This document shows positions 1 to 58,137 of a stretch of DNA of 64,000 bases, piece by piece. The notes under the pieces are model-generated. The model searched no databases, had not been told where the DNA came from, and saw only the letters and a program-made list of their open reading frames with translations. How positions within the stretch are numbered: position 1 is the first letter of the stretch; each line of letters starts with the position of its first letter. A program made the position numbers and the translations under genes. The DNA is from Guillardia theta CCMP2712 (lineage: Eukaryota > Protista > Cryptophyta). The stretch lies in contig NW_005434569.1 in NCBI RefSeq assembly GCF_000315625.1, positions 169,816 through 233,815 of the forward strand, written 5' to 3'.

Positions 1-3000
1 TTTGGATCTGCGATATAAAAAAGTCTTGTCTCGGTCACGTGATGTGTCACGTGACCGGTCAGGTGAGCCTGTCAGCCGGGTCACGGCCCCTGTCAGCCGG
101 CTGACATGTCACGGGCCTGCTGACACGGTCCGCTGACCGGTCACGGCCGCCCGGAGAGATCAGGCCCCCGGCCAATCTCCGGACACTTAGCCTCCTGGCG
201 GGCCTCCAGGGGGTCTGAGGCGGGGCTGAAGGCTGCAGTCGGTCTACTGACCGGCCCGGCCGGCAGGATCCGTCGAGAAGCAGGGGGGTCAAGGGAGGTT
301 TTCTTCCCCCTGGGAGAAATGTCCTATGGGTTTTTGGATCTGCGATATAAAAAAGTCTTGTCTCGGTCACGTGATGTGTCACGTGACCGGTCAGGTGAGC
401 CTGTCAGCCGGGTCACGGCCCCTGTCAGCCGGCTGACATGTCACGGGCCTGCTGACACGGTCCGCTGACCGGTCACGGCCGCCCGGAGAGATCAGGCCCC
501 CGGCCAATCTCCGGACACTTAGCCTCCTGGCGGGCCTCCAGGGGGTCTGAGGCGGGGCTGAAGGCTGCAGTCGGTCTACTGACCGGCCCGGCCGGCAGGA
601 TCCGTCGAGAAACAGGGGGGTCAAGGGAGGTTTTCTTCCCCCCGGGAGAAATGTCCGGTAGTATGGGTTTTTGGATCTGCGATATAAAAAAGTCTTGTCT
701 CGGTCACGTGATGTGTCACGTGACCGGTCAGGTGAGCCTGTCAGCCGGGTCACGGCCCCTGTCAGCCGGCTGACATGTCACGGGCCTGCTGACACGGTCC
801 GCTGACCGGTCACGGCCGCCCGGAGAGATCAGGCCCCCGGCCAATCTCCGGACACTTAGCCTCCTGGCGGGCCTCCAGGGGGTCTGAGGCGGGGCTGAAG
901 GCTGCAGTCGGTCTACTGACCGGCCCGGCCGGCAGGATCCGTCGAGAAACAGGGGGGTCAAGGGAGGTTTTCTTCCCCCCGGGAGAAATGTCCGGTAGTA
1001 TGGGTTTTTGGATCTGCGATATAAAAAAGTCTTGTCTCGGTCACGTGATGTGTCACGTGACCGGTCAGGTGAGCCTGTCAGCCGGGTCACGGCCCCTGTC
1101 AGCCGGCTGACATGTCACGGGCCTGCTGACACGGTCCGCTGACCGGTCACGGCCGCCCGGAGAGATCAGGCCCCCGGCCAATCTCCGGACACTTAGCCTC
1201 CTGGCGGGCCTCCAGGGGGTCTGAGGCGGGGCTGAAGGCTGCAGTCGGTCTACTGACCGGCCCGGCCGGCAGGATCCGTCGAGAAACAGGGGGGTCAAGG
1301 GAGGTTTTCTTCCCCCCGGGAGAAATGTCCGGTAGTATGGGTTTTTGGATCTGCGATATAAAAAGTCTTGTTCTCGGTCACGTGATGTGTCACGTGACCG
1401 GTCAGGTGAGCCTGTCAGCCGGGTCACGGCCCTGTCAGCCGGCTGACATGTCACGAGCCTGCTGACACGGTCCGCTGACCGGTCACGGCCGCCCGGAGAG
1501 ATCAGGCCCCGGCCAATCTCCGGACACTTAGCCTCCTGGCGGGCCTCCAGGGGGTCTGAGGCGGGGCTGAAGGCTGCAGTCGGTCTACTGACCGGCCCGG
1601 CCGGCAGGATCCGTCGAGAAACAGGGGGGTCAAGGGAGGTTTTCTTCCCCCTGGGAGAAATGTCCTATGGGTTTTTGGATCTGCGATATAAAAAAGTCTT
1701 GTCTCGGTCACGTGATGTGTCACGTGACCGGTCAGGTGAGCCTGTCAGCCGGGTCACGGCCCCTGTCAGCCGGCTGACATGTCACGGGCCTGCTGACACG
1801 GTCCGCTGACCGGTCACGGCCGCCCGGAGAGATCAGGCCCCCGGCCAATCTCCGGACACTTAGCCTCCTGGCGGGCCTCCAGGGGGGCTGAGGCGGGGCT
1901 GAAGGCTGCAGTCGGTCTACTGACGGGCCCGGCCGGCAGGATCCGTCGAGAAACAGGGGGGTCAAGGGAGGTTTTCTTCCCCCTGGGAGAAATGTCCTAT
2001 GGGTTTTTGGATCTGCGATATAAAAAAGTCTTGTCTCGGTCACGTGATGTGTCACGTGACCGGTCAGGTGAGCCTGTCAGCCGGGTCACGGCCCCTGTCA
2101 GCCGGCTGACATGTCACGGGCCTGCTGACACGGTCCGCTGACCGGTCACGGCCGCCCGGAGAGATCAGGCCCCCGGCCAATCTCCGGACACTTAGCCTCC
2201 TGGCGGGCCTCCAGGGGGTCTGAGGCGGGGCTGAAGGCTGCAGTCGGTCTACTGACGGGCCCGGCCGGCAGGATCCGTCGAGAAACAGGGGGGTCAAGGG
2301 AGGTTTTCTTCCCCCCGGGAGAAATGTCCGGTAGTATGGGTTTTTGGATCTGCGATATAAAAAAGTCTTGTCTCGGTCACGTGATGTGTCACGTGACCGG
2401 TCAGGTGAGCCTGTCAGCCGGGTCACGGCCCCTGTCAGCCGGCTGACATGTCACGGGCCTGCTGACACGGTCCGCTGACCGGTCACGGCCGCCCGGAGAG
2501 ATCAGGCCCCCGGCCAATCTCCGGACACTTAGCCTCCTGGCGGGCCTCCAGGGGGTCTGAGGCGGGGCTGAAGGCTGCAGTCGGTCTACTGACGGGCCCG
2601 GCCGGCAGGATCCGTCGAGAAACAGGGGGGTCAAGGGAGGTTTTCTTCCCCCCGGGAGAAATGTCCGGTAGTATGGGTTTTTGGATCTGCGATATAAAAA
2701 AGTCTTGTCTCGGTCACGTGATGTGTCACGTGACCGGTCAGGTGAGCCTGTCAGCCGGGTCACGGCCCCTGTCAGCCGGCTGACATGTCACGGGCCTGAT
2801 GACACGGTCCGCTGACCGGTCACGGCCGCCCGGAGAGATCAGGCCCCCGGCCAATCTCCGGACACTTAGCCTCCTGGCGGGCCTCCAGGGGGTCTGAGGC
2901 GGGGCTGAAGGCTGCAGTCGGTCTACTGACCGGCCCGGCCGGCAGGATCCGTCGAGAAACAGGGGGGTCAAGGGAGGTTTTCTTCCCCCCGGGAGAAATG

Positions 3001-3087
3001 TCCGGTAGTATGGGTTTTTGGATCTGCGATATAAAAAAGTCTTGTCTCGGTCACGTGATGTGTCACGTGACCGGTCAGGTGAGCCTG
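1..3087. repeat. Tandem array of a 332-337 bp GC-rich palindromic unit (~9.2 copies, probably continuing left of the window)
   Basis: TTTGGATCTGCGATATAAAAAAGTC recurs at about 1, 333, 670, 1007, 1344, 1674, 2006, 2343, 2680 and 3017. There are two variants (GTCCTATGGG and GTCCGGTAGTATGGG). The match ends abruptly after GGTGAGCCTG at 3087. Confidence 0.98.
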
Positions 3088-3304
3088 CCTCGACGTGCTC
3101 GCTGAGCTCCTCGTGATCTGGCTCTGCTCTCTCCACCATCTTGAGGATCGGCATTGCGGAGATCTCATCGAGCAGTGCTTCCGCCTCTGCCTCGAGATCC
3201 TCACCGAGCCCTGGCCCAAAGGTGGTGTTGGGATACACGATGCGGATGCCATCGTAGTCGAGGCTCAGGTTGGACGCGTGGTTTATTGCATCGGCAGGAT
3301 GCAT
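3088..3304 (-). CDS. Acidic hypothetical protein whose frame runs into the tandem array (truncated or fused)
   Basis: ATG at 3304 (MHPADAINH...) lies ~25 nt downstream of a minus-strand TATAAAAG. After ...EELSEHVEA the frame continues into repeat-derived sequence to 2738. Confidence 0.6.
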
Positions 3305-3375: not shown

Positions 3376-3690
3376 CTAGAAGACAACGTCCAAGGAGAGG
3401 TTGAGCAAGCGCCCGACGTAGTCGTGCGTCGAGCGCTTGAAGCGCGCCGCGTTGGTCTGCGTGTAGAGCTCGAGGTAGCGCAGCAGCCACATGTTCTCTG
3501 TCGCAATGTCAATGCACCTGCGACGGTCCTCACTGGACAGCCCGGTGACGCCCTCGTAGGTCGTCTTGATGTGACGCTCGAGGTTCTCAACAAACTGTGC
3601 AGTCTGTGAGGCAGTGGGGTGCCTGGCATCGATCAGCGTGCGGGCAAGCCTGCGGAGGTTGTTGTGAAAAAGCATGGGCTTAGAGTCCAT
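3376..3690 (-). CDS. Hypothetical protein (104 aa)
   Basis: ATG ORF with virus-like codon usage, TATATAAG ~40 nt upstream and AATAAA just downstream (~3347-3352). Confidence 0.7.
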   Translation of the reverse strand: MDSKPMLFHNNLRRLARTLIDARHPTASQTAQFVENLERHIKTTYEGVTGLSSEDRRRCIDIATENMWLLRYLELYTQTNAARFKRSTHDYVGRLLNLSLDVVF

Positions 3691-3814: not shown

Positions 3815-4129
3815 TCAGTGCTTCGTCTTCTTCTGCTTTCCTGGGGATGCGATTCGCATGAGATTCTGGTGGATCGCACGCACGTTTTGCTTATTCTCCC
3901 TGTCGGAGAGCGCGGAGATCAGATTCCTGCACTGCGAATGGCACGAATCGATGAGCTCCTTGGTGTTGGGTGCATGCTGTAGCTTGTCGCTCAACTTCTT
4001 TGCATTCCTCAGGTTCCTTGCCGTGATACCAGCGTTGATCAACTCGTCCTGATCACCATGCCTCGACACAATGTCGAGCTTCCTGGCGATATCTTCCAGT
4101 GTCTGCCTCATATCGATAGGTTCAGACAT
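3815..4129 (-). CDS. Hypothetical basic helical protein (104 aa)
   Basis: ATG ORF with TATTTAATA at ~4161-4169 on the minus strand and a basic C-terminus (KQKKTKH). Confidence 0.7.
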   Translation of the reverse strand: MSEPIDMRQTLEDIARKLDIVSRHGDQDELINAGITARNLRNAKKLSDKLQHAPNTKELIDSCHSQCRNLISALSDRENKQNVRAIHQNLMRIASPGKQKKTKH

Positions 4130-4247
4130 GATTCTGTAGTGCTTGTGTGTTGCTACGCGGTATTAAATACGATGCAGCGCCGAGTGATATAAGGGTGGAA
4201 GAGAACGGCTGGTGTGCGCGTTGGCTCTGACACTGTCTGTTTTGCAG

Positions 4248-6581
4248 ATTGGCACAACCAAGGGCACGGGCGGGGATTGCCTGATCTTGGAGGAGGCAGC
4301 CTACTGCGATTCGACCTTTTTCTATGAGACCGTCGCGCCAATCCTATCGATTGGCAGCACCTCCCTGCTCTGCATCTCCACGCTCACCTCCGAAATCAAT
4401 TTCTACACGAGGCTGATCAAGATGCGCGATCCCGACACTGGCCGCCCGCTCTTTGCCGTCAAGTGCATCGAGCTCGCTTGCCAGCAGTGCAAGGAAGACG
4501 GGAAGAGCCATGAGTGTGTGCACATGCTGCATCTCGTTCCGCAGTGGCAGAGCGGGGAGAGGCACAGGAGGCTGAAGGTGGTGATGCAAGACAGGCCCGA
4601 CCTCATCCAGTCGGAGCTGGCGGGGCTGGCGTTCGATTCTTTGCAGCAGGCGTTCAGGGTGAAGGACATCGAGGCCATGCTGTCGCAGCAGGCGCCCCCG
4701 TTTGTTAGCAACCAGAACATCTACCTGGTGGTGGACCCAGCGACGGGTGGCCCGCAGAGTGACTACGCGGTGGTGAGCATCGTGAGGCACAAGGGGTTGA
4801 TCACGGTAAGTGCAGGGATGTGTGCGTGTTTTATTCTTGCAAACACCAGTGGGATTTCCTTTGCGCGATTCCGCAGGGTTACCAAAGGATGTGTCTGAGG
4901 GTGTACTTTTCAAACACATATATCGTGAATCCGATACAGTGCTTCACAACGAAGGTGACAACCATCCAGGCAGCATCTTGGACCTTGCTCATTGTGCTCT
5001 TGCGCACGGGGATGTTGTTGGCCAGTGCGAGGAGCTTGATGAAATCACCGTACGTCGGATCCTGGACCATGTGCTCAGGCATGTACCTATGCTGTTGTTG
5101 CATGAGGTGCAGGGCATTGATGATGCACACTGGGACCTTGCCGTTTGACGGCATCGTGAAGGTGTTCAGCTCCGAGATAGTCTGGAAAACCTCAGGCTTC
5201 AGGTCAACTCCATGTCGATACATATCGAGATAGAGAAGGATTTCGTCGAGGTCCTTGCAGAGTTCCGAGCACTGGGCATCATCCTCGTGCTTCTTCAGTT
5301 CGAGCACCAACTCTTGCCATGTGCCCTGGTGTTTGATCATCGTTTCCCAGATCATGGTCTTCTCGGGGATGTTGAAGCTGGTGCAGGAAGCGACGATCAA
5401 CAGGACCACCTTAGTGTCGTGAATCAGTGGCTGAAGGTCAGCATTGCAGATACTCTCCCTGTTGTACTCCAGGTGGAGCACAACCTTGCAAATGTCACGT
5501 TCTGCATCGTCAATGGTGCTCGCAAGAAAGGACGTGAAGTCTTTCAGACCCGATATCATGGTTAACTGAATCGGGTCTGCAAGTTTAAATACCAGGCGTT
5601 GCCATGCTCATGAGCATTGATACATCTCCTGGATCTCCTGCTCGAAGGTGATGGTGGTCTTGAGTTCGTCTCGGAGGAAGTTTGGGATCACAGTGCTGTC
5701 GATCGCCTTGAAAAACACGGGGGCCTTGTATCCGCAGAGGGGTTGGAGGGTGACGTCGGCTTCCTCGATGACGTAGGGCTTTGTGAATGTCTCCTTGAGA
5801 CCCATGTCAACGTTGAGCAGCAAGATCAGCACACACCGCGCCATGTGCTCGTTCCTGCTGGCGATGTCGAGCAATTTGGAGGGGAGCGGGTCTTTCAATA
5901 TGTTGGCAAGCCTCTGTGCAGATTCCCGGCAGAGCTTCATTGTTGTCTTCATGTCGTTGTTGTAGAGGATATGGAAGAGGATGTCTCTCTGTGGCACTGA
6001 CATTCTTGCCGTTGCAGATTGTCGGGATGGACGTCCTCTCCGGATGCAAGGGTGAACGCTTCCTTTTGATGCATTTTTTAACCTCTTGCACTGCAGAGCC
6101 AGACAAGCAGTTCGATCTCCTCGCCGAGCACATGCAGCGCCTGAGGGATTGCAACACGGCCTTTGTGGTATCCGAGATCATTGTCATGGTGGAGCGGAAC
6201 CTTGGGTTCGAGGCGGAGTATCACCAGCGCCATTTCAACGGCATGAAGAATGTGAGATTCAGGGTTGACCACAAGGCCCAGCGCTACGGCGTCCTCACCA
6301 CGCATGAGATCAAGCATGCGATGTGCACGATGCTGAACTCACTGCTGAGGGAGGGGAGGGTGCATCTCTGGGAGAATTTCGTGAGCCGCGATCCGAGGGG
6401 CATGAAGCGTCGGCTTCGCGAGCAGCTGGAGATCTACTCCTACCAGTTCAAGAGCGCGGCCAGTGTGTTCAACAAGGATCAGATGGCGCTCAGTGGAAAG
6501 GTGGGAGGCATGAAGGATGACGTCTGCATCGCACTGCAGCTTGCGTGCTATTACAGCTCGAACCCAGAGTTTTACGCGTAG
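4248..6581 (+). CDS. DNA-packaging terminase large subunit, C-terminal ATPase part plus RNase H-like nuclease; exons 4248-4805, 6018-6051, 6097-6581; 5' exon(s) absent
   Basis: KGTGGDCLILEEAAY (Walker B), LLCIST (coupling motif), CxxC...CxH Zn site, IYLVVDPATGG (nuclease Asp), IVMVERN, and ALSGKVGGMKDDVCIAL like the herpes UL15 C-terminus. Donor ACG|GTAAGT at 4806 and acceptor CTGAC...TTGCAG|ATT at 6017 join in frame. Confidence 0.9.
4879..5559 (-). CDS. Intron-nested hypothetical protein (226 aa)
   Basis: Clean ATG ORF with strong codon bias, TATTTAAA at ~5584-5591 and AATAAA at 4830-4835 (minus strand). Confidence 0.85.
   Translation of the reverse strand: MISGLKDFTSFLASTIDDAERDICKVVLHLEYNRESICNADLQPLIHDTKVVLLIVASCTSFNIPEKTMIWETMIKHQGTWQELVLELKKHEDDAQCSELCKDLDEILLYLDMYRHGVDLKPEVFQTISELNTFTMPSNGKVPVCIINALHLMQQQHRYMPEHMVQDPTYGDFIKLLALANNIPVRKSTMSKVQDAAWMVVTFVVKHCIGFTIYVFEKYTLRHILW
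5608..6003 (-). CDS. Intron-nested hypothetical protein (131 aa)
   Basis: ATG ORF with virus-like codon usage; its first codons overlap the intron branch point. Confidence 0.75.
   Translation of the reverse strand: MSVPQRDILFHILYNNDMKTTMKLCRESAQRLANILKDPLPSKLLDIASRNEHMARCVLILLLNVDMGLKETFTKPYVIEEADVTLQPLCGYKAPVFFKAIDSTVIPNFLRDELKTTITFEQEIQEMYQCS
6052..6096 (+). other. Probable 45-nt in-frame micro-intron in the terminase
   Basis: G|GTGAAC...T-rich...TTTAAC...CTGCAG. The stretch is T-rich inside a GC-rich exon, and removing it gives CKEPDKQF. Confidence 0.6.
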
Positions 6582-6587
6582 ATTTAT

Positions 6588-7552
6588 TCAATTCGAGTTC
6601 AATATACTCCATGCCTTGAAGAATTCCATGCATTGGTGTGCGTCGAAGTGCTCCATGATCGCCTCCAGTATGAATGGTCTCAATATGTCCTGGTTGTTGT
6701 TGCAATTCTCGTAGATGCATTGCAGGAACCCGCCGATGGCATCCCGCAGGTGTATATCGTTCTGGATGCATGCCTTGCAGATCTTGACAAACACCATCGT
6801 CAGTGCGTAGAAGTCCGTGGCCTCCAGGTCGTGGTAGGTGAAGGCATTGGCCCTGCACACGATGGGATAATCCATGGTGTTCTTGGTCATGCAGGATATC
6901 TTGAGCTTGATGGATTCGGGGCAAAGGGTCGGATTGGGCAGGTGGGATATTGTCCCGTCCTTGTTGTAAGCCTTGGGGTGGAGCTTGGGGATGAAAGCAT
7001 TCCCCCAGTCGATGAGATAAGCAGAGCCATCCTCGTTGATGACGATGTTGTGGTTTCGGATGTCGTGTGATAGACCGAGAGGGAGTGCAGGCGGGCCAGT
7101 TGGCGGCAGATCCTCTGGAAGCTCTCTACTAGCTTCTCCCGCATGTGAGGTTGATAGAATGAGATGAAACGCGGTGTCGGCACCCCGAGGTAGGGGAGGA
7201 TGGCGTACATGATTCGGTTGTATTCCTTCTTTAACATCCCAAATCCCGACCAGGTGCCAATGTGGTCCCTCTCTCTGTAGTCAGAGAGTTGATCGAGAAG
7301 GTATCGGTTGATCTGGGTCTCTTCCATGAAGAGCGTTGGGCTTGAAAAGAGCTTGATCACCAAGGCATGCCCCTCCTGCTTGGCAAGGAAGCACTTCCCG
7401 GAGACCCCCTCCCCGAGGTAGAAGAAGCGGATGCCTCTGAGATCCCGCATCTGCCTGCTGTGGCGGACAACCTCGAGCAGTATGGTGTATGTCTTCTTGG
7501 TGTTGTGGAGCTCCGTGTGGCGTATGCGTGGGAGGGGGATGGATTCGGACAT
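6588..7552 (-). pseudogene. Ser/Thr protein kinase with a 1-nt frameshift at ~7066 (pseudogene or sequence error)
   Basis: LGEGVSGKC P-loop and VIK lysine. Adding one base after TAT CAC gives YHxDIRNHNIVINEDGSAYLIDWGNA and joins the 6588-6890 ORF (~321 aa total). Confidence 0.85.
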
Positions 7553-7583
7553 TCGATGGAAGCCCCCCACGTGCGGTCCCCTT

Positions 7584-10500
7584 TTAAAGGCCCCTCCCCT
7601 GTGGTTGACTAATTCTAATATCTAGTTTTAATCTATGTGTCATTATGACTGTCGCGATGATGAGCTTCAGTACCTCCCTCAGGAGGAATACCGGGAAGCT
7701 CACGAGGAGGCCTATGACGTAGAGGAGGAAGAATATGATGATGTAGATTGGTATGACCCGCCAGATATTCAGCGTGCCGCAAACCAATTGTGCGTTGATC
7801 ATGTCTTCTTGGTATGCATCGATGATGGCTGCCTTGACAGATATGTGCCGGTTGAGCGAGGTGAACTGAACCGCGGCCGGGAATCCAGCGATGGACGCCC
7901 CCAGAGACCTGCAGAGGTCGGTAGAGATGAAGCAAGTCCACCATGCGATCTCGGATTCCCACGTGTTGAATTCAAACGGCGCGTCGCTGCAAGGGATGAT
8001 GCATGCCTCCCTATTGACCACCGCCGGGTCGTTGAGGCACCCCGGTGAGGTCTGCAGGCTGTCGGGGAAGCGGAAGGACGAGGGGAAGAACACGTTGGCA
8101 ATATCCACAAAGTCCTGAATGAAGCACGTCGGGATCATCGGTGCGCAGAAGGGGGAGACACCAAAGGCGTAGTAGCTGGTGATGACTGGGTACGTGCCCC
8201 AGAGGAATGTGCTCACGTAGGGGATCTGGAAGGCAGTGATCACCGCAGTGGTCCCCGCGAGCAGTATCCCTACGACGATGCCGGAGACCAGCAGTGTGTA
8301 CTTGTGCTTGGAGCACAGCATCACGGCCGACCGGTCGCACCGGAGGAAGTCTTGCAGGAATCCAGGCGATGCCATGAGCGCATTGTAGAAGAACTGCCGA
8401 TTGAACGGCGTGTGCTCCAGCGCGGATACGACAGTGAAGACCATCGTCGAGATCCAATCCCCGTTGACGGGCCTCTGCAGCGGTGGCACAGTCTTGGTCT
8501 GCGGCAGGCCGCTTAGGGGCCAGCTGCCTGAAACCACCTTGCGGGGGCTGGCGGCGAGGAGGGAGCCCTGGGTGTAGAAGAGTGTGACGTTGCCAAAGGC
8601 GTTCCTCGTCAGCGTCAGTGTGTTGGACAGCAGCGCACACGACCCGAGGGTCTGCGGGATGTCGTAATTCACGGGCCATGCAAAGGGGCTGTCCACCCAG
8701 GCGTTGCTGGTCGCCGCCCCAACTGGCTCGACGATGCCGTCATTCAGGGAGGTGGAGGCGGTGAACCGCTTCACCTCGCTCCTCTGTGTCTGCCATGAGG
8801 TCTGCAGCAGGTGCCTGCCGATGGATGCGTTGGTGATGTTCTCGAGGAGGTGCATGGCAAAGGGCCCCTCGGCAGCGATGCTGAGGATGTGCTTCATCGC
8901 CAGCTGGTTCTGGATCGCCAGCGGGCCGTCTACCCCCGAGCGGTTGAAGTGGGAGGAGAGGCCGTGGAGGATGTTGAGGAGGAGGAGCGTCGTCTCGCTG
9001 ATGTTGTCACCGTGGATGTACATCCCGCCGTCGATATCTATGCGATAATGAAGGCTGTTGTTCCTCTTCGTGCCGTGGATTGCGATCTCGTAGTAGAGGT
9101 CGTGGAACACCCTCGTCCACACGTGGTAATAGCGGTGCAAGCGCTGGAAGATGCTGGTCTGCATGCCAAGCTCCAGCACGAGGGTGGGATTGTACAGCAG
9201 CAGCAGGAGGGCGGTGGGATCATTCCCTATGGTCTCCATCAGGTCGGTGAGGCTCACGAACATGTTGGGAGGGATGCGATCCTCGATGCCGTGCCGCCTT
9301 GCAACATCGTAGGTTGCAGCGAACCTGGTGATGCAAGAGACAAACACGCGGGTGGTGCGGTTGGAGAGGAGGTATTCGTCGTAGGCGTCCATGCAGGTGG
9401 CGTCGTGGCTGTAGAACTCTGGGGAGTCCAAACCGAGGAGGCGGCGGCCGTAAGGGCCCGAGGCGCCGGCGCCAGACATGCCGCTGATGCCAATGGAGAC
9501 GAGCATCGGTGCAAAGCTGAAGAACGAGCTGAACACGCTGTAGCAATACACCTGGTCGTAGTTGCTGTTGTAGCAAGGTGTGGCGAGGAGGTTGTTGTAG
9601 CTTATCGTGTAGGTTGCGCTGGAGGATGCCGAGAACCCACCCATGGAGGTGGTCACCTGCGCAAGGCAGAGGCCGGAGAGCTTCGGTGCCACCGCCTTGG
9701 TGACATCGCTGTTGGAGCAGCCCTGTGGGTCCACCCGCGTGAGGAAGCAAGAGCAAGAGCCGTAGGTCTTCCCGGGTTGCAGGATGCACATCGGCTGCGT
9801 TGTGCACTGTGCACACGGGATGTTTCCAAAGGTCGGCTGTATGTCGCTGTTCATGAAGACGCAGGTGGCATCGATCTGGTTGACACACTGCTCGTGCGTC
9901 ATGCACGGCGTCTCGTAGGTCTGCATCACGTTGCACATGCACTGTTTCCGTATGGGATCGCACCCGTACCTTGCCACCGTGCTGGTGGATCCGCCGTAGG
10001 GGCATGCGTCGCACACCATCGTGTCCGACCCGCTCGAGGCCGTGGCGCGAAGGCAGGTGTCCGAGGCGGAGCAGGAGAGGCGGGCCCCGTCGCTCACGCT
10101 GGTGATGTAGCTGGCCCAGCAGCGGGTGGGCGTCGGCAGGGTTCCATCTTCCGCCTGCGGTGGGAAGGCATTCCCAATGTCACATTTGAGGACATTCCTG
10201 GCATTGCAATCGATGGACTTGAGCTTGTTCCCGACATCCAGGTATATCTGGTAGACGATCCAGGTGAAGGGCTTGATCCCGATGATGCTGATGTCATGGA
10301 TTGTCTTGAGGGCATTCCCGATGCCCGTACACACGTCACCTACAAAGTGCAGGATGGGGCAGATGACAGGGAAGAAAAAATTGTTCAGGAACCAGTTGAT
10401 GATGGTGCAGATGATCTTGATGATCTTCATGAGCTGATCCCCAAAGGGAGCGGAGCGTATGAGCTCAAACACCATGTTCCCGATCTGCTCAAACAGCACC

Positions 10501-13500
10501 CTTGCCTCGTTGATGAACATGTTGAACCAATGCATCACCTGTGGCATGACCTGATCGGAGTTGATGCCTAGCAGCAGCTGCATGAAGTTGAACCCCATCA
10601 TCCCTGCGTAGAAGACGAGCTTGACAATGGTCTGAACGATCTGCCTCAGATCCCCAAACAGCTTGTAGATAGGGACAAGAAACTCTGCCGCGCACTGCTT
10701 CTTCATGTTGTTGTTCTGTGCGATCACCGCCTGAATCTCCTGTGTGGTGTAGACCGAGGAGCACGCCTCGCTGCTCACCGACTGGTAGAAGTCCAGCACC
10801 GTCTGCGTCACAAAGGCCTGGTTGGATATGCTGTAGGCCGACGGGTTGTAGAGGAAGCGTGATTCAACGCACACCCCCGCGGCCTTGCAGTTGGCAGCCT
10901 GTATCCTCTGCAGGAGGCTTGCGACGTGCGTTGAGAGGTTGTTCATCGTAGAGTCGAGCGTCCATATGCGTATGGGGATCATCGTGCTGGTGGTTGGGGC
11001 CGCGGACATGGCATCGCGGCACGCACCGAAGCGCTGCTTAGGGTCAAGCCAGGTCTCTTTCGGGATGGATCCGTAGCACTTCCTGTTGGAGTAGGGTTTG
11101 GAGTACCGGTCGCTGTCGGAGCAGAAGACCCATTCCCTGTCCCAGAACTTGCTGTCATTCACGGGATTGGGCGGCGCCGGGGTGGAGATGGAGGCGCTGC
11201 TTTGTATCTGGAAGAGCGAGGTGAAATCCTGCAGGTAGGCCTGCAGGAAGCTGTCGACGGTCCACTTGCTCGGGTCGATGGCGTTGTCGAGCAACGGGCA
11301 ATCGATGGAATTGCCACAGATCTGCCTTCGGAGGTCCTGTGCCATCGTGCGGGAGAGGGAGAGCCTCACGGGAACCCCAAAGCTTGTGAATTGTCTCATG
11401 CTGCTGGATACGGGGTTCCTGGCGTTGTCGGTTCTGTCGACGTAGGATCTGAGCTGTGGCGAGGGCTGGCACTCCTGGAATGTCCTCCTATGGTTGGCCT
11501 GGAATTGCGTGACAAAGTCCGTTGGGGATGGAACGTCGAGGGCGTGCAAGGAAGTGCTCGTCACTGGCTTCCCCGCGATGAGGGCTGTGGTGCTGCACTC
11601 GAGGTGTGAGAAGTTGTACCGGTGGCATCTCCCCCCGATGGGAACGGTGCTTGGGACGCGGACGAGGCGCCCTGTGTGGCATTCCCCTCCCGCGTCCAGG
11701 GTGGTGATGCCGGCATCCGCCGTGATGCTCACAGGGAGATACCTGAGCTGGAACTCCCTGAGACGATCGTGGACGGGGCAGTCTGTGTTCTGTGCCGCAC
11801 TCCCTAGGTCGGTGCCGTCGCGGAGGACGCCCTTGGTGTTGGGCCAGTCAAGGCTCCGCTTGCATCCCTGCGTTCCCGCGTAGCTCTGCTTGGTCTTCCA
11901 TTGGTTCCCCGTGAGGAGATCGACCGTCTGGTACAGCCCACAGCTGCTCGCCGTGTCGGTGGTGAGGAAGGAGCAGTCCGACTTCGAGGAGCAGCTGCAG
12001 ATCTCGCTCACGAAGAATGGGTCTGCGAGGTCTGGGATCGTGGTTCCAAAGGGCTGCATGGGGTTGGACATCCCGTTCCCTACCGTGCCGCCCATCTGGT
12101 TGGTCTCCGAGAACATCGTCGCTGCACGGGGCCCGTAGGGTGCCTTGGGGCGGAAGGACTGCGACGATCCTCCCCAGTAGTGCATCTCCCTCACAGGGCA
12201 GTCCCAGGATACCGCCCCGTTCTGCGATGCGCTGCCAAGCTCGGCCGCATTCAGATCGTAATCCGAGCGGGAATCGATGGCGTAGGTCTTAAGCCAATCG
12301 AGGTTGTTGGATGCGCATGGGTCGATCCCTGGGGTGCTCGGGGAGGTATCCGCATTGGTTGCATAGGCAAGGGGCAGGCATTTCGGCAGCAGGTTGTGCG
12401 TGACGCCGTCGGGCAGCGGGGCGAGGTCGGCGACGAGGAGCGACCCCCCGATGTCCATCTGCGACTGCTTCAGGATGCCAAACTGTGGCGAGCGGGCCTG
12501 GAATGCAGGGTTTGGATTCGAGCCAAAGATGCCCGAGTAAGGCATGGAGGTGGCCGGGCGTGTATAGAGATCCTCCATCGTCGTCCCGGACCCGCCGCCA
12601 AAGCTTCCCTGCTCGTGCAGGCAGGTTGTGTTGACGCGAATCCCGCGGTTGCAGAGATTGTTGCCTGCAGTGCTCAGGATGTCGATGCGGGATGGGGGCT
12701 GGTTGTTCTTTGTGATGCACTGGGCATAGACCAGGGAGTTGTACTCCGTGCAGGCGGAGATCCCGGTCTTGCAACCCCCGCTGATGACGGTGCTGAACTC
12801 ATTGGGGAGCACCACCGTGTCGCAGGCATCCCTGATGTTGAAGCCCCCGCCCAGCCATGGGTTGAGCGAGAGCACGTAGCCGTCGAAGGTCCTGTAGCAA
12901 ACGGCCTCGGATTGCAGCGTCTCCTCGCAGCGCATATCGCTCAGCACCCAATCGAGGTATTGATCTCGCGACGGCCTCGCAGCCTTGGCCCAGTGCAGGC
13001 TGTGCATCGAGGTCACCTGTGCAGCCGTGAGCTTGGTTAGCACGGATTGCTCGAGGTCAGCGACGCTTGCAGACTTCCGCTTGTACTGCGCAAGGCACGA
13101 CTTGAGGCTCTCCCTGTGTGACGCCGGTGTGCATTCGGTGGTCTTGACAATCTGGTTGATGCACTTGTCGAGGGGTTGGAGACGCATGGTCTCGGCCTGT
13201 GCCCTGTAGCTGTTCAGCTCGTAGAGGTTCAGCGTTGTGTCGGGATACTTGCTGTTGGTGTCCATGAATGAAAGGCTGAGGAAATCCGGCGTTATCCACA
13301 GCTGGTTGTACAGGTCGGAAGGGAGAAGGCCGTTGCCAGACGTGATCTGCCTTGACACAAGAAAGTGCATGAGCCGGAATGCATCCTTCTGTGTATACCC
13401 ATTGGCCGCTGAGCTCTGCCCTGTGAGGCCGATGTAGTTCCTGTCAGAGCTTGTGAAGCCAAGAACGGATTCGTCGATCCTCCTGTAGCGGTACAGGTGT

Positions 13501-16500
13501 TTTCCGATATACTTGAGCAACGGCACGCGGGCGCAGTCACTCTTGCAGATCCAGAGGTTGTTCATGATCTCTGCCAATACGCTCTGATTCACCGACCTCA
13601 GCGGGCACTTGGAGAGCGCGTCCGTCGCGCTGCTGGCACAGAAGATCTCCGTTGCATTCTGCAGATGCAGGGCAATGGCATGCACGAGGCTGTTGTCGCG
13701 GGCAACATTGCAGACCTTGCCAGGGCAGGGGCTCACCGATCCCAGGCTCGTAGAGCAAGAATCGGTGCTGCAGCGTGTAGAGACCCCAGTGGGTCTTGCC
13801 CCGTACCGGCTCCAGATGGCCTCGTTGGAGAGGACGGCGAAGTTGGGCTGCTGCCCCGTCCCGGCATACCATGAGTTCAGCGTGCTCTGCACCGAACCCA
13901 CCGTCTCCGCATCCCAGCCCGTCCATGACAGCAGGTGGCTCTTGTTCACCCCCGTGACATTGAAGCAGTCGACCCAGGCAGGGTACCATCTCGTGCTCGT
14001 CCTGGGGTATTCCACAGAGTAGAACTCGTCCGCATTGGGATCGCGGCTCCCCGCCGTCCCGTCGCGATAGAACACGTAGATGTCAACACCCCTGACGGAC
14101 TGCACAAGGTCGACGGGGGTAGAGAACCCGCCGAGCGACTGGCTGTCTCGCAGGCAGGTGGAGTCGGTGCGCAAGCAGATGTCGCCAGCTGGGTTGGTGA
14201 CGTCGAGATCAATGGTTGTGAACTGCACCGAGGCCAGCGATGGGTTGACGGCGCTTTGTATGTCCCGCACAAAGAGGAACTGCTTGCAATGCGTCTGCAT
14301 TGAGATGTTATTCCCACCATTCACCCCTGGGGCGTTGAGGTACGTGTTGGTGCACCTGTCATCCTGCGAAGCATGAAGCAAATCGCAGGACTGCCCCGTG
14401 CGTTGGTCGTAGGATGGGGTTGGATTGCAGACATTGATGGAACGGCAGTTCTGCGCAGAGTCACACAGTCGCACCTCGGGATCCTGATCCAGGTTCTTGG
14501 TGATCCCAGGCTCGTAACCGGGGAAGTTGCTGTACAGGCATGCGGTGGTTTGCAGCGTGTTGTCCCGTATGAGGCTCTGATACCTTCGGAACAGTGCACC
14601 GTTGTATTGCACGTCTCCGTAGGTAAAATCCTCCAGCGGCTCATCTTCACGCAGCACGGAGGACAGGATCGAGTCGAGCTCCGAGTCTAGGAATCGCCGG
14701 AAGATATTCGGGAAGTTGTACTGCAGGATGCCGCTGGTGGCATCGAAGTACTGCTTGTCTCGCGAGAGGAAGTCTGTCGCGAAATCCGCCCTCTGGAATG
14801 CCAGGTTTGCCCTCGCCGTGCGGTTCACCCCCGAGTTGGCAGCGGCGTATCCCAGGTTGATGTCACCGCTGAGGATGAAGTGCAGGACCTGGGTGAGCAG
14901 CGCTGGGATTCCGTCGTCGGCTGGGAGCCCGCCGTCGTCCTGATAGACAGGGTCCGTGTTGGTGATCTTGGTGCTGTCCGAGATGACATCGCTCGAGGTG
15001 GTGTATTGGTTGTACGCCCAATCGTGGTTGTAACGGCTCTGGAGCTTGCGCAGCTGCACGTAAGTCAGGTTGATGTACTCAGGGTGCGAGGAATAGCCCA
15101 TCGCTGCCGTGACGTCGGCCTGCGCCTGCAGCAGCTTCGAGTACAGCGTGTCGTAGATGCTGAGGGCAATCTGGTCTTGGTTCACCACCGCCCGCCTCGA
15201 TGATTGCAGGTACAGCGCATTGGCCATCATCAGGAATTGCCTCACCGTCGACGGTTGATAGCCCGCGGTGTGTGAGTTCTTCCAGCCCGCACAGGGCACT
15301 TGATCGATGTTGCCGGCGATCATGCCGTCGATGTTCACGTCGCCGTCTAGAATGACGCACTGCGCCCACCACTTCATCGGGATCTCCATCTGTGAGGCGT
15401 CATCATAAAAGTACAGCGTCATGTAGGGGTAGAAGTAGGTGGGTACCCCGGGCTCGAACTCGTATGCATACCACTGTGTTGCCTCGTTGGTTGATTCGGA
15501 CTGCGCGTAGAGCGACATCGTATTGTACACATTCGCGATGCACACTGCCTGCTGCTGGTACTCCTCCCAGGTGTTGAAACCTCGCTTGAAACCACGGAGC
15601 AGGATATCATTCAACGCGCTTGCCACCTTGTTCCGGTCTGCCAATGCATAGCTGTATTTGTAGTAGCGGCAGAGGGTGCCTACTGCCTGCTCGTTGATGT
15701 ACGAAGGATTGAACTGACAGGAGGCCTTGAGGACGTCGTAGTCCTCGCATAGCATGCGCGCGATGGGGTTTGTCAATGGGTCCATACGGCATGGGACCCC
15801 ATCCGTCAGGGTTGTGGAGGAGGTTGACAGATCCACAAGATATCCGGCACTGCCGCAATACAGTGCGTCCTGCAGGGTGTAGGCATCCCTCCTCGTCCCA
15901 AGATTCTGCAGGTTGAGCCTGTTGATCAATCTGCCCTGCATCTTGTATCCCATGACATAGAAGTCCTGCAAGAAGCAGATCTGCAGTTCGGAGCACATGG
16001 AGAGGGAGAGGGATATGTTCCCAAAGGAGTCCTCACGGTTGTACCCCTGGTAAGGGGCCAGGAATCCCGTCCTCTTCCTCTCCAGGCTGCCGAGCTTGCA
16101 GAGCTGCAGGGACCACTTGTTGTCACCCGACGAGACCCAGGTCCTGGTAGTCTCCCCCTGTGCCTCCACCGGCAAGGGGATCCCAAGGCTGTCAACAGTA
16201 GTGGATGGATTGCCGACACAGGATGGGAACTGGAACTGGTAGTCCATATCGCAGGTGTGAGGCTCCATCTGCAGGATCCCGCGGTCGAACATGTCGAGCC
16301 GTATCTGCGCGTCGGTGAGGTATGGGTCTGTGCTGGGCCATTGGATGTCATCGGGGATATTTGCCAGCGTCGCTGTTGCAGCACCCGCAACCCCGGAGCG
16401 GGCGATCAGCTGCTCGTACTCGAACCAGGAGCGGAAGCCGCAGAGCCCGTGCCGGGAGAGGAAGTCCTGCGAGTTCTGCCAGGGTGAATGACCGAGGGTC

Positions 16501-19500
16501 TCCGTGCCGCATGCCTCCGAATTGACATGCATCTCCACGGGCCACGGGGCGTAGTTCCGCAGCATGACGTGCGGGTCTACACAGGTTCCCATGCCGGTGC
16601 AGACCCTTCCGGCGGCACCGCAATGATAATTCTGGTAGCATTCCATTGCCAATGCATTCTGCACTACGCACACCCCGTCCATCTCCTTCCCCTCCGCGTC
16701 CGACCATGCCCTCAGGCACTTGAAACCCTCCCCATAGAGTGAGACGCAGTCCCCGTCCGCGGTGCAGGTAAAGAAGTCGGTCTGGCCGCAGTCCCCGTTC
16801 CATCCCACCGCCGTGTGATTGGGGAGGCGGTAGCGCTGCAAGTCGGTGCTTGACTGGGGCCAGGATACCGCTGGGAGCATGCCTGGCCACCAGCGGTAGA
16901 GCATGCCCGACGATGGGAAGGATTGGTCCGACTGCCGGCCGTTGCTTGGGACATCGCTCCAGCTCGTTGCAGCCGTGGACTGCACAAAGGTGCCAGAGGG
17001 GGCGGTGTCTGCCTTGATGGGCTGTGTGGGATCCATCCTCTGCCCGCTGGTCCATCGGCTTTGGAGCCTCACGTTGTTGGTCTCCCACATGGGCATGCCG
17101 TAGGATGCCGAGCTGCAGGTGGAGGCGGCACCAAAGTAATTGCGAAGCAGCGTCTCGTTCTGCAGTCTCCGCGTGTCGAGCACGAGGTAGCGCTCGTCGG
17201 TGGCAGTGTCATAGTCGACGGACATCCAGGTGTCGAACGCCCTGTATGCCGTCTCCGTGTGCCGGCAGCCGGTGGTGACATGGTAACCCGTCGGGTGGAT
17301 CCAGTGGCTTGGCCAGTAGTCGAGGAGGGCATCGGCGTGCTCGTTGCTCCCCAGCGCCGTCCCTGCTAGGAGGCCCTCCCCGAGCCTTCCACCGAGGATC
17401 GACACCGTCTGCAGGTTGCGCCTGTCGTTGAGAGTCATCTGGAAGGTGTCGATATACTGCTGCTCGTAGGTGTTGATGCTGGATGCGAGGGTCTGCATGT
17501 CCGAAGCGGATAGACCTGTGTTCTGCAGCTCCTCGCTCGGAACCACTGTTGGCACGGTCATGGTGGACAGGCGCATGTCGTCGTCGTCGAGGGTGCGCGG
17601 ATCGATGGGGAGCTGGCAGGTGCCGGTGGTGTCGGACCAGGTGTATCCCTTGCATGCCACACCCTGCAGGCTTGCACAGAGGCACGGGTCGTGGAAGACC
17701 CCGTCGCAGTACACAAGGCAGTCCGAGGTTGCGTAGGCATTGGTGCAGCTCACAGAATGAGAATAGGGGCACTTGGAGCTGTCAAAGGTGGCGGAGAGGC
17801 CGCCAGATGGCACAATGTCGTAGATCCCATGCAGATTGCAGAGCGAGACAAGCCGCACCTGTGTCACGCATCGCAGCCTCCAGAGATCCACCGTTGTCCT
17901 CTGTGATCCTATCTCTGGGTTCGGTGTGGTGGATTGATAGATGGCGTCTACGTGGAGCAGGGCCTCCAGCCGTGCCAGCTCCAGCACGAACCTTGAGCAG
18001 AACGCCTCGGTGGACGAGGAGTGAACCGTCCTCGCCATGGGCATCAGATGATCGCGGAAGTGTGCATCCACCCTTGCCAGGTCCTTGACGTAGTCCTTGA
18101 ACCCATTGCTGGAGTGATCGCTGTTGGTGTCATCGATGCAATCCTCGATGGCAGCACTGGTGTCGGTGTCTGCATTGTACAGTTTGTGCTTTCGGGACGA
18201 GGGATTGAGGAACTCCGGGTAGTTCTGCTGTAGGTAATCCATGTTGGCAAGCCTCAACCCAGATGTGCCATGCGTGAGGAGGTCCGCCCAGTCAAAGTCG
18301 TAACCCCCCAAGAGGGAGCCCTGCACTCCCACGGCCCACTTGTCCACCTTGGTATCGCTCACAATTCCCCATACATCCGACAGCTGCATATCCGTGCAGA
18401 CCCAGGTGGGCATCCACACGGCTTCCATCGTACGGTAAACCGCCAACCACTGCGAGAAGGTGGAATAGGACCCTGCAGAGCAGATCGAGTAGAATTCCTG
18501 TATTGTTGCGGCGTCCAGAGCGGTCCCCTGCAAAGACGCCGTCTGGCAAACACCCGTGGGAACAGAGCAGCTTGTGCCGTCTGTGGATTTCCAACCGCAG
18601 TAGCAGCGGGTGGTGAAAGAGGACAGGTTCAGCCCGTAGGCCCCGTACGATGCCGTCTGCATACCCGTGAGATGAGGGGGCATCGTGTAGGATGTCCCGC
18701 TGGCATCCAGGGTGATGCGGTTGCCCGAGGCCGAGGGGAGGATGTCATAGGCGACGGGCCTTACCGTGGATTGGGAGTCCCTGCATCGCTGGCTCTTGGA
18801 TGGCATGTACCTCACATCCCCTCCCCTGAATCCGTGATAGAACGGCGACTCTGCCTTGGCCTTGGAGAGCAGCGTCTGCACCGTCTCCTCGATGCCGTCA
18901 ACGTATCCCGAGGAGGGGGTCGCCGTGGCATCGTGCTGGTAGGCGCTGTAGATGGTGTCAAGTGCAAGCCCGTCCAGCGTGCTGTTGAGGGGGAGGACGG
19001 CAAAGGTCTGCGAGAGAACGTTGGTGCACACCTGCCAGAGGTTCTGCGACGATTTCGGGTCGAGTATGTCCTCCGTGTCGTACCGGAGGATGGGTTTCGA
19101 GGTGTCAAACAGGGACTCATCCTTGGCCTGCGTCTTCTGGCTCTCCGTGAGGTTGGAGGAGTATTCATTGAACATTGTCACATTGGTGTAGATGTCGATG
19201 ATGTGCTGGTTGATCTTCTCGTAGATGCCCGAGAGCACATCCTCCGTCTCTAGGATGTCAAAGTTGATGCCCTGGATGTCCTTCGAAGTCCAGAGGTCCG
19301 GCTCGTTGGCCTTGCAGCAACGGAGGTTGTTCGTTCCGTCTCCGCACTGGCAGCCAAACAGGAGGGTGTTTGTGAGGACATCGCGGAATTGCCTCAGCTT
19401 CGCCCTCACCCCATTCTGCACGGCCTGTCGGAGCAGGTTGTTGCTGCTATCGGTGTTGAATCTCTTCAGCGTCTGGATGAAGCTGTGGATGATTGCCATC

Positions 19501-22500
19501 CTTCCCGGCCCGCCGCAGGAGAAGGGGGAGACCTGCGGGCAGCATGCGTCTTGGGCGGGGTCGCAGCCTGCCGATGGAATCTGGAATGTGCGATCCAGGG
19601 TGGAGGATCGGTAGTACTGAAGGACCTGAAGCGAGCGCGATCCGCCCGACGGCCAGAGCTCGGCTGCGGAGAACGGCCCTAGGAAGTAACAGTCGAAGAG
19701 CTGGTGGATGACATCCCCCTCCATTGAGAAGAAGTTGAGGTCCAGCTCTGTGTTGGACCAGCCCAGCACCTCGGGTGTGAATAGCGCCCTGGCCTCCGCC
19801 GCCACCGCATCGTACTCGTCCTGAACGGACTGGTACAGGGCCTGCGATCCGGGCACGTAGCTCACCGCATGCAGCGAGGCGATCGGGACGCGGTTGCTCG
19901 TCCTCCCCGACCAGATGTATTGCGGGAGCTGGCACTGTGAGGAGAGCGAGGTGCTCAGGCACTGGCTGAACTCGTGGGCAATCGCCGGATTGGGGTTCTG
20001 TGCCGGACCCGTGAAGACCTCGCAGCCATCGATGTCTGCATAGTCCGCATTGTCGGAGGAGAAGCTTGCGATGCTATACAGGAAGTAATTCACACGGCTT
20101 GTGTTCATCAGGGTGAGGTAGCCGAGGAGGCAGGCATCCGTTCCGGTTCCCACGCGCACGGACTCGGAGAAGCAATTCAGCACCGATTGCTGGATGAATG
20201 AGGGGTTGTACACATTGTCGATGATGAATCCAAGGTTTTGCAGGTCTGGATAGAGCTTGTAGTTGGAGATGTAGGCAGCCCCCGTGTCCCACACCTTGTT
20301 GGCAAAGTTGGATCGGCAGCGCGTGAGCACCGTCCCTGCATCGATCCCCTGACGCTCTAACAAGGGGAGCGTTGGGCGGTAGGTGTCGCAGCTCCCAAAC
20401 CGCGTGGTGGTAGCCATGCAACGCAGGTAGGCATCCATCCCCTTGCCCGTCGATGGGTTGTATCGGCATGCGTCGACCAGCTCCTGGAACGTGTACGGGT
20501 TGAATATGAGGTATGGCTTGCCGTCGGACCTCAGGATCTGCATCACACCGGTGCACCAGAAGGCATGCTCCCGGATGCCCTCACCCCTCCTCGCGCTGTT
20601 GATGTGGTGAGCATAGTCCCCGCACGCACACTTTGCAATGGTCGTCGTTGTGATATCCGGCAGCTTGCAGTGCTTCTCGTCGATGGTCTGCAGCACATCC
20701 ATGAACCCGTAGACCACGCCTCGCATGTAGCTCAGCGTCGCATCCGCGGAGTGGTACAGCGGTGAGAGGTTCAGCGTAAACCCCAGGTCGATGAAGCGGC
20801 TGGCCACCTGCGAGGCCGCGTTGTTTAGTGTGGAGGAGCTGCCGCCAAGGGCAAACGATTGGACGTCCTGCCCAAACACCTGAGTGAGGCAGACGCCTGT
20901 CATGTCTGCCGTGGCCGATTGTATGTCGGCATTGCTGATGACCATCTGCATGTTGCCAAACAGATCGGTGTTCAGGATCCCCAGCACGCTGTTGGTTGTG
21001 CATACCATGATCTTTTGTGTCACGGTTGCTATGTAGATAGGCAGTATCAGTATCTGTGAGAACATGTTTGTGATGCTAGCCATAGACAGGGTCGAGCGCG
21101 CATTGAAGCTGGGGTCAAAGGGGACGAGGGAGACAGCCTGTGAGCTCAGGATCTGCTGCGCCTTCATCGTGATGCCGTTGATCAGCGAGGCGATCATCCC
21201 CACGGTGGTGACAATGATGTCCTTGGCCTCGCACATGGTGGAGGCGAAGACCTCGTCGGGCCACTCGATCCTCACCACACCGTTGAGCTGTCCCGTGCTT
21301 GCATCGACAAGGAGCTTCATGTTCTGTGAGAAGATCATGTAGATACTCTGTAGGATCGTGAGGATCTGTCTTGTGACCATCTCTGCCGACGCCCCGATGG
21401 CGCAGAGTGGGCGTTGGTAGTTCACCGTCGTCCCTATGCAGTTGGCAACCGCGCACTGCGATGCCGCATAGCAGAGCCTCTGCACAGTGGGGTATCCCAT
21501 GCATCCCGTGCAATCGTCAACGCTGCAGTTCTTCTTGAGCGTTGTCAGGATCTGGTAGGCAGTGCTGAATGCCCTCTGCCCCGCCCACACACCGGAGGCG
21601 ATATTCAGGCGGATGTCGGAGAGCCACGTTGTTGTCACCCTCTCGTTTGCAATCGCGAAGATGGTCATGGACGATTGCTGCGAGGGCCCGTTGTATCCAG
21701 AGAGGGAGTTCTGCGACATCTTCGGTGTCTGGCGTATGATCTGGTTGTCCTGTGTGATGGATATCTTGGGGTTCGCCACGGTGGCCAATCCCAGGGTTGT
21801 CGCAAGGTTGGAGCTCATCCCCGTGGGGTGGCAGGTGAGGACGTCCACGTTCCGATCACAAACCCTGACGCTGTAGCCATCCGTAATGGGGAACAGCGCT
21901 ATCCCACTGCAGGAGGGGTCCAGGCATGTCACATAGGGGGTGTCGATGGTCGAGAAGATGTTCTGATTGTCAGAGCACTGCTGGATTGTGTAGGCAGAGG
22001 TCTTCAGTGCTACGAGCTGCGCGAACTTCTTCGTGTCAAGATAGATGTGAATGCAGACCCATGCCGTGGAAGGGTTGCCATTGATGGTCTGTATGGTGGT
22101 TCCTTCTATGAAGATATCCGCAATGTCGTCGCTTGGGAAGACCACCATATCCTCGATGGTGTAGAGATCGGTGAGGAGTATCGGGTTCTGTGACGCTGGA
22201 ATGGTCTGCACAAGGGTGTAGCTCTGCCTCTGGTTGCTGATGAGGAAGACGCTGCTCACCGTGGCGGCCACCAGGATGTTGCTCTCACCGATGGAGTCAA
22301 TGAGATTGATGCTGGCATAGCTCAACCGCATCACCGACGACGACCACTCCTTGCTCTCCGCCACCGAGTAATCGATCGCCTTGTTGGCAAAGGACCCGTC
22401 GGTGACGACCGCACTCGTCCGGATCCCCGTCTTGAGGTTCGACGGCAGGCAATACGCCTTGGACACCAGATTCAGCCCGGTGTCAATCCCGGCGATCGCG

Positions 22501-26789: not shown

Positions 26790-26925
26790 CCGGCGGCAAC
26801 GCGCCGGCAATCACCCCGCCCTTGTGCAAATAGTCCTAAATAGGGGAGGGTGGCCGTCTGATTGAAAATAAAGGGTCTGTCTTCTGCGGTGCGGGGGCAA
26901 AAGAGGGAACGCCCACGGCGCCCCA

Positions 26926-38279: not shown

Positions 38280-38753
38280 ATGCTCATCAGCGGCATCGCC
38301 AACCCTGCCGGGGAGACCGAGGGATACAACGGGCTGCACCTCAAGGACGGGGAGATCGACGAGATCATCAGCGGCAGGCAGATGATCGGCATCCCCGTCA
38401 AGATCGAGCACAAGGGCGTCGGTGTCGGCACCGTGGTCTCGGCATTCAAGGATGAACAGGGCAGGCTGAACTGCATACTGGACATCACCGACGATGAGAT
38501 CGAGGGCGCGATCGCACAGCAGTGGGTGCGGGACAACACGGCCAGCGAGCTCTCGCTGGGTTACACCGTCGACATCAACCAGTCCGAGCCGCAGGGCAGG
38601 CTCTCCGCGGGGAGGAAGAAGGTGCTCGAGGTCAGCCTCGTCAGGAAGGGTGCGAGGAAGGGCTGCCACATCTACAGCCACCCAGGGAAGCACCCGCCTG
38701 GCGACCCCGGGTTGATCAAAGACTGGCGCGAGGCTTTCGGCCACCCCTTCTGA
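38280..38753 (+). CDS. Capsid maturation (prohead) protease, assemblin/HK97 type
   Basis: IPVKIEH..VGVGTV (catalytic His), ELSLGY (catalytic Ser) and EVSLVRKGARKGC (cf. herpes HVALC..GRR). Confidence 0.88.
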   Translation: MLISGIANPAGETEGYNGLHLKDGEIDEIISGRQMIGIPVKIEHKGVGVGTVVSAFKDEQGRLNCILDITDDEIEGAIAQQWVRDNTASELSLGYTVDINQSEPQGRLSAGRKKVLEVSLVRKGARKGCHIYSHPGKHPPGDPGLIKDWREAFGHPF

Positions 38754-57516: not shown

Positions 57517-58137
57517 TCAACATAGCTCAATTTTTTCGTCATTTAGAAGGTTGCCTTTCTTTACATAAGATTCCAATTTATCTTTGAGCGTTGCACTCTC
57601 TTGGTCGCGTATTGAGGTTTCGATCGTGTTCGGCAGTACTTTCAAATTCTTTAACATCCTGATAGAACCCCGATTTTTCCACGGTTCTCCCGCGGCCGCC
57701 CCCTCCCCTGGCGCACCAATCTCAGGGATGAATGCATCTCGGTTCTCTGCCATGCCATCCCCGTCCTCTGCCAAACCATCCCCGGTCCCCTCCTCGAAAT
57801 AATTATTGAACTCATACTGGATGTCCTCGTCATAGTATGCCTCGTCCCACAGCCCGTCGTCCTGGATCCCCGCGGCGCGGAGGACGCTGGGGGGGAAGCG
57901 GAGGACGCCGTCGTCGCGGTCTGCGAGCTCGCCCCACTCGGCGAGCTGCTCGAGGGACTCGTGGAGGAGGTCCATGGTCTCCTGCTCGATCTCTCCTTTG
58001 GACGGTGTCGGCGTTTCATCGGAATGGCAGTCGTTGTTGGGAATAGAAGCCGAGTGGAACACCACCTGGACTCCATCGTAATCGATGGCTTCTTCGGGGT
58101 GAGATCCAGACGGCAGGTGGTTTACTGCGCCGTGCAT
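57517..58137 (-). CDS. Acidic hypothetical protein; GC-rich 5' part fused to AT-rich sequence
   Basis: ATG ~25 nt after TATAAAAGAG; composition changes near 57690. Confidence 0.5.
   Translation of the reverse strand: MHGAVNHLPSGSHPEEAIDYDGVQVVFHSASIPNNDCHSDETPTPSKGEIEQETMDLLHESLEQLAEWGELADRDDGVLRFPPSVLRAAGIQDDGLWDEAYYDEDIQYEFNNYFEEGTGDGLAEDGDGMAENRDAFIPEIGAPGEGAAAGEPWKNRGSIRMLKNLKVLPNTIETSIRDQESATLKDKLESYVKKGNLLNDEKIELC

Follow-up and report, generated by a model that had tools for sequence, protein, structure and literature searches.

A mirusvirus-type terminase half-gene that opens at an orphan splice acceptor and is very probably completed by trans-splicing

Within the 64-kb stretch of DNA analysed here (the window), a plus-strand gene of three exons was found to open directly at a splice acceptor (Table 1). 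The original prediction had described this opening as a CTGAC element and an acceptor followed by ATT at 4248, preceded by a TATAA and an in-frame stop and by no in-frame ATG, and every one of these letters was confirmed by direct reading. The 20 codons between the TGA stop and the acceptor hold no ATG, with the first in-frame ATG located at 4422, past the Walker B region. Exon 1 terminates at a GT donor at 4806 and shows 60-66% identity to the intron-free C-terminal halves (C-halves) P0011 and P0019. The region upstream was found to carry only antisense genes (three ORFs) and a repeat array, as had been predicted. No match to the array was detected in the fetched loci or elsewhere in the window. 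A TATA-like box is present in each of its units, and a similar short motif lies within the ORF 57517-58137. Within 1-3304, the array appears to cut an antisense gene and may mark a genome end, an origin or a rearrangement.

Table 1. Features of the terminase half-gene and of the region upstream of it (window coordinates).
Feature	Position	Strand	Basis
337-bp tandem array, 9.2 copies seen, running off the window	1..3087		
Antisense ORF running into the array	starts at 3304	-	
Antisense ORF	3376-3690	-	
Divergent neighbour, 104 aa, own TATA-like box, not part of the terminase	3815..4129	-	
In-frame TGA stop	4185-4187	+	Read from sequence
TATAA, likely promoter of the 3' half-transcript	4188..4192	+	Sequence; promoter function putative
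Orphan (putative trans) 3' splice site: branch point CTGAC, short pyrimidine tract, CAG acceptor, phase 0	4227..4247	+	Sequence and comparison of loci
Branch-type CTGAC	4227-4231	+	Read from sequence
Acceptor stretch TTTTGCAG	last base 4247; ATT then opens at 4248	+	Read from sequence
C-half exon 1, 186 codons: Walker B region, Cys/His motif, start of nuclease domain	4248..4805	+	
GT-AG cis intron, 1212 nt, two antisense genes inside	4806..6017	+	Flanking exons contiguous in P0011 and P0019
Intron-harboured gene, 226 aa, no family found	4879..5559	-	
Intron-harboured gene, 131 aa, likely MING-1	5608..6003	-	Profile of 22 intronic ORFs from other loci
C-half exon 2, 34 nt	6018..6051	+	Comparison with intron-free homologues
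GT-AG intron, 45 nt, frame-keeping	6052..6096	+	Exact match to a 15-residue insertion relative to P0011 and P0019
C-half exon 3, remaining nuclease domain, stop TAG at 6579-6581	6097..6581	+	About 50% identity to intron-free homologues

Downstream of the half-gene, a kinase-like gene (6588-7552) is apparently carried in two overlapping frames (6588-7280 and 6887-7552) with weak kinase matches, and the split appears to be due to a frameshift, an intron or an assembly error. It is followed by a minus-strand open frame of 6408 codons (7584-26810) which is cysteine-rich with hydrophobic ends. Between 45300 and 64000 the GC content drops from approximately 0.57 to 0.40-0.50 in most intervals, ORFs become sparser and arrays of 63, 47, 42 and 197 bp are present; this part could belong to the host, to a second element or to a variable arm of the virus.

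The exons of the window alone gave no Pfam hits and only weak PHROG terminase hits, and the C-half alone gave no terminase match in PDB or Pfam. A C-half profile search returned 3724 relatives at E<=0.001, and from the best 150 of these, 27 long ones with an N-terminal extension were taken. These 27 (among the best 150 of 3724) carry a PRRxGK Walker A motif and match terminase families. A full-length profile of 29 rows (25 full-length proteins, two N-terminal halves, one C-half and the window exon) matched UL15 of HSV-1 (E 5e-19), UL89 of HCMV and gp17 of T4, and because of these matches the half-gene opening at 4248 is identified, by profile comparison, as the Walker B and nuclease part of a large terminase. 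Its product is the back part of the DNA-packaging enzyme in a large virus that is related to herpesviruses and whose hosts are likely single-celled eukaryotes. The break maps 14 residues ahead of the Walker B acidic pair, and the exon boundary of UL15, which we take to lie at residue 343/344, is presumably about two codons from the aligned break.

Related loci were collected by a metagenome scan in which 142 stretches were confirmed and the best 80 kept; three scans of viral_contigs (with the window exon, the C-half alignment and the N-terminal half) returned no relatives. An AG stands directly ahead of the same codon in 75 of these 80 loci (best 80 of 142), and in the other five the match begins later in the protein, near the start of the contig. 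The triplet at the acceptor is CAG in 74 of 76 cases, the window included. Exclusion of loci with less than 130 nt upstream (72 left) and of near-copies resulted in 45 distinct loci, 38 of which have a branch-type motif, while an in-frame ATG upstream of the acceptor occurs in 11 of the 45 at scattered positions. The neighbours upstream of the C-half vary from locus to locus. A sister locus (L047) has the same layout as the window with no array in its 3.4 kb upstream. From this comparison, opening at the orphan acceptor is judged to be the inherited normal state of the clade and not damage. The original prediction had offered loss of the 5' exon by integration as one explanation; since the orphan acceptor is common to 75 of the best 80 of 142 relatives with different neighbours, the array-less sister locus among them, this found no support.

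The acceptor site of the 1212-nt intron is also common, being present in 28 of the 45 distinct loci (27 besides the window). A profile built from 22 intronic ORFs of other loci had the 131-aa gene as its sole match in the window (E 2.6e-7), and one protein family is found inside introns at this nuclease-region site. The gene is likely MING-1, a name assigned on the basis of the site described by Medvedeva et al. (2025; PMC12768974). A single-sequence model of the 131-aa protein reached a pLDDT of 49 with no fold match, and no match was found in the Atlas. The ATG of this gene overlaps the branch motif of its host intron (5997-6003), an overlap visible in several loci.

The half of the terminase with the Walker A motif (the N-half) was searched for with two N-half profiles across 2023 stop-to-stop frames of the 64 kb and was absent (best E 2.4 and 1.0), which bears out the original prediction on this point. 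With held-out N-half pieces at E<0.01, the same profile recovered 14 of 17 pieces of 15 aa, 11 of 12 of 20 aa and 9 of 20 of 12 aa, so that sensitivity is good for exons of 15 aa or more. The best hits of 86 N-half queries against the window by tblastn (E 6e-4 and 0.002) showed gaps or a stop and left the Walker A motif uncovered.

Among the 80 loci (best 80 of 142), an N-half was found in one alone (L041). Its C-half runs from 6553 to 9016 and its Walker A exon starts at 17496 on the same strand, 8.5 kb past the C-half stop. The Walker A exon begins at a CAG acceptor of its own, and the gap back to the C-half stop is taken up by an antisense ORF of some 8.4 kb (L041:9016-17741). The first 90 or so codons of the N-half were detected neither in this locus nor in the 9 kb upstream of the C-half in a sibling locus (L039). 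The Walker A exon of L041 was used as a query and returned 943 proteins, of which the best 120 were examined. Among these best 120 of 943, 14 start at the site of the second acceptor of L041, and this acceptor may represent a second non-colinear junction.

The same set of N-halves showed where the front half ends. The motif closing it, [ST]YPS[KRN], is present in 103 of the best 120 of 943 hits and is followed by Val in 101 of the 103, which fits a GT donor (GTN), and none of the 120 runs on into the C-half motif. The N-halves of the relatives thereby end at the codon matching the acceptor: in the unsplit homologues P0071 and P0079 the sequence is uninterrupted across the junction, from which it follows that donor and acceptor are both in phase 0 and compatible. 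The donor was seen as DNA in one locus (G002) and is otherwise deduced from the following Val (101 of 103 among the best 120 of 943). In G002 the N-half ends in GTATGT with an AATAAA 173 nt later, and no C-half lies on the same 23-kb contig. The sole C-half is on another contig; the GC contents of the two halves differ (52% and 60%), and they may come from two viruses. Intron-bearing terminase genes of the same family were found in two genomes filed as bacterial MAGs (L081 in G001 and L082 in G002), where viral contigs have most likely been mis-binned. In the source records, two of the N-half hits carry the names of cryptophyte proteins, from Guillardia theta and Hanusia phi, a hint as to the hosts of the clade, though not as to the host of the window.

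The TATAA of the window sits 39 nt ahead of the branch motif, with the same spacing in the sister locus L047. A lone TATAA in a single window would be a weak indication of a promoter, and the support comes from comparison. Of the 45 distinct loci, 18 lack a TATA-like box in the 40-130 nt ahead of the acceptor and 27 carry one, against a mean of 6.4 and a maximum of 13 in 500 dinucleotide shuffles. Where 300 nt of upstream sequence exist (40 loci), three successive 90-nt intervals held 23, 3 and 2 such boxes. The internal acceptor of the gene-carrying intron has a TATA-like box in 0 of 28 cases, a control which is unmatched because its DNA is antisense coding. Where both signals are present (25 loci), the branch motif lies 30-41 nt after the TATA in 15, compared to 4.0 with a maximum of 11 under random placement (5000), with this range having been picked after the data were seen and 8 of the 15 loci in it belonging to one clade. 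The genes of the window carry a TATA-like box 31-46 nt before the ATG in 12 of 22 cases (using a slightly wider motif set), and the branch point therefore occupies the usual place of the start codon. Eight of nine loci with an upstream ORF in the same direction have the box; five of these are homology-verified, all from one clade.

Divergent promoters and kinship are partial confounders of the TATA signal: among 37 classified loci, 22 have a divergent neighbour to which the box could belong. In the window itself, the antisense gene at 4129 already possesses another TATA-like box, on the minus strand 40 nt ahead of its ATG, which speaks for a dedicated C-half promoter. The opposite strand is nearly as rich in TATA-like boxes (20 of 40 versus 23 of 40) because TATATA is palindromic, while the counts of the asymmetric TATAA and TTATA are 17 versus 9. 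A scan for sigma-70 sites was negative, which is in line with a virus of eukaryotes. On balance, a dedicated promoter probably drives the C-half transcript, and the comparison suggests that this promoter leaves an outron as short as about 30-35 nt. The possibility of a short cis exon at the 5' side, placed between TATA and acceptor, was considered as well and ruled out, as it would bring no ATG.

From the sequence and its relatives, the gene is the Walker B and nuclease half of a mirusvirus-type terminase, and it is considered very probable that it would be transcribed independently and trans-spliced to a Walker A half encoded outside of the window. Transcription from the TATAA at 4188 would start a capped pre-mRNA a few bases ahead of the branch point, leaving the outron of about 30-35 nt, and a separate N-half pre-mRNA would close with a short tail behind a free GT donor. 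The host spliceosome would then join both halves and cut out the 1212-nt and 45-nt cis introns, and the resulting single mRNA would encode a full terminase of roughly 570-590 aa. The choice of partner probably takes place without a long RNA duplex, the outron being too short for one. A search for complementarity between donor and acceptor had been proposed in the original prediction. None was seen in the one pair tested, in which the G002 donor-outron duplex came to -44.2 kcal/mol, while shuffles gave -46.9, with 223 of 300 reaching as low a value, and random windows gave -54.0, with 263 of 300 doing so. This test is weak because the contigs may belong to two viruses. A more specific scheme is put forward tentatively, in which mirusvirus terminase C-halves would be expressed from a TATA promoter of their own lying 30-41 nt ahead of the branch point, the acceptor RNA would be little beyond a cap, a branch point and an AG, the partner would be chosen via the donor RNA or protein factors and not by RNA pairing, and the Walker A half of L041, at a second orphan acceptor, would become part of a trans-spliced mRNA of three pieces.

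A very large intron had been predicted as another way to complete the gene, and the window alone, which shows just 4.2 kb upstream, is compatible with it. A same-strand N-half to the left of the array would be joined by long-range cis-splicing as in UL15, the intron of which also contains genes, over an intron of more than 4.2 kb spanning the array and the three antisense genes, and it is in keeping with this that the same gene already holds an intron with antisense genes (4806-6017) and that herpesvirus terminase exons are approximately 3.5 kb of intron apart (PMC13595911). However, an N-half is absent in each of the 14 loci (10 distinct) for which 9 kb or more of upstream sequence could be examined, the upstream neighbours change between loci, and an extra plus-strand TATA lies at promoter spacing. 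The N-half of L041 is moreover downstream of the C-half, an order that is unusable by colinear cis-splicing and further disfavours the large intron, which is regarded as improbable. Trans-splicing from a separate transcript is the best supported of the three options originally predicted, and is also the published state of most mirusvirus terminases (PMC12768974).

The half-gene could also be a relic left after integration or rearrangement of the virus at the array, in which case the N-half would have disappeared and the C-half would have ceased to function. The array does resemble a junction, as the antisense ORF that begins at 3304 meets it after 73 codons whereas its relative in L047 has 372 aa. 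Set against this, the three exons are all open with every splice site intact, and loss is unnecessary as an explanation given that opening at an orphan acceptor is normal in the clade; a relic is accordingly thought very improbable. The least probable of the alternatives is that the halves are not joined in trans at all, either because translation of the C-half starts at the ATG at 4422 and gives a free nuclease that works together with a separate N-half protein, or because back-splicing takes place in one long transcript. The ATG exists, UL15.5 of HSV-1 likewise begins within exon 2 (PMC12451640), and the order of the halves in L041 would be compatible with back-splicing. The 58 codons ahead of the ATG, Walker B among them, are however conserved and must for that reason be translated, and back-splicing is impossible for the published cases in which the halves are on opposite strands (PMC12768974).

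Trans-splicing is already published for this same gene. Mirusvirus terminases were described as mostly trans-spliced, with joining at the RNA level and including opposite-strand cases (Medvedeva et al., 2025; PMC12768974), in Okeanovirales, Styxvirales and other Mirusviricota (for example Mirus_G_0318). As in the window, the break in these terminases is just ahead of Walker B with the C-half comprising Walker B and the nuclease, the splice sites are canonical, cis introns are present in the C-half and a gene-carrying intron occupies one conserved site in the nuclease region. Joining was demonstrated there by metatranscriptome reads and is predicted from DNA for the window. The putative membership of the virus in Mirusviricota rests on the terminase and its intron layout. 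No HK97-type major capsid protein, portal or triplexes were recognised among the window ORFs scanned. A 157-aa ORF (38280-38753) has a weak match to Pfam Herpes_ORF28 (E 0.005, below cut-off) and is possibly a capsid maturation protease.

The UL15/UL89 terminases of herpesviruses are homologous to that of the window (E 5e-19 to UL15 chains) and are also split between the ATPase motifs, although in orthoherpesviruses the exons are colinear and cis-spliced (PMC13595911). The terminase of alloherpesviruses, which infect fish and amphibians, resembles that of the window, by description, in being multi-exon with genes within a long intron (EsHV-1, PMC12567609); it has three exons, and trans-splicing has been hypothesised for some (PMC12768974). 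A mechanistic analogy is offered by mod(mdg4) of Drosophila, in which 3' exons with outrons are expressed from independent promoters and no complementarity between donor and acceptor is needed (PMC12692577, PMC13490949), but this is a cellular gene with many alternative 3' exons and no homology to the terminase.

The main text of PMC12768974 does not use the word promoter, mentions TATA solely in TATA-binding protein and makes no statement on a TATA at this site. Nothing on this promoter was found in the literature on mirusvirus trans-splicing, terminase promoters and transcription start, as searched mostly outside of subscription journals. New leads are limited to the TATA box with its short outron and to a possible third piece in L041. 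As regards the split, the virus is one further entry in a published list, with one supplementary table holding at least 656 matches to 'trans-splic' (PMC12768974). The mechanism could matter for how two viral pre-mRNAs meet. A conserved promoter with an outron of about 30-35 nt would, if true, provide a sharp prediction for 5'-end mapping, and an outron this short would represent a minimal natural substrate for gene-specific trans-splicing.
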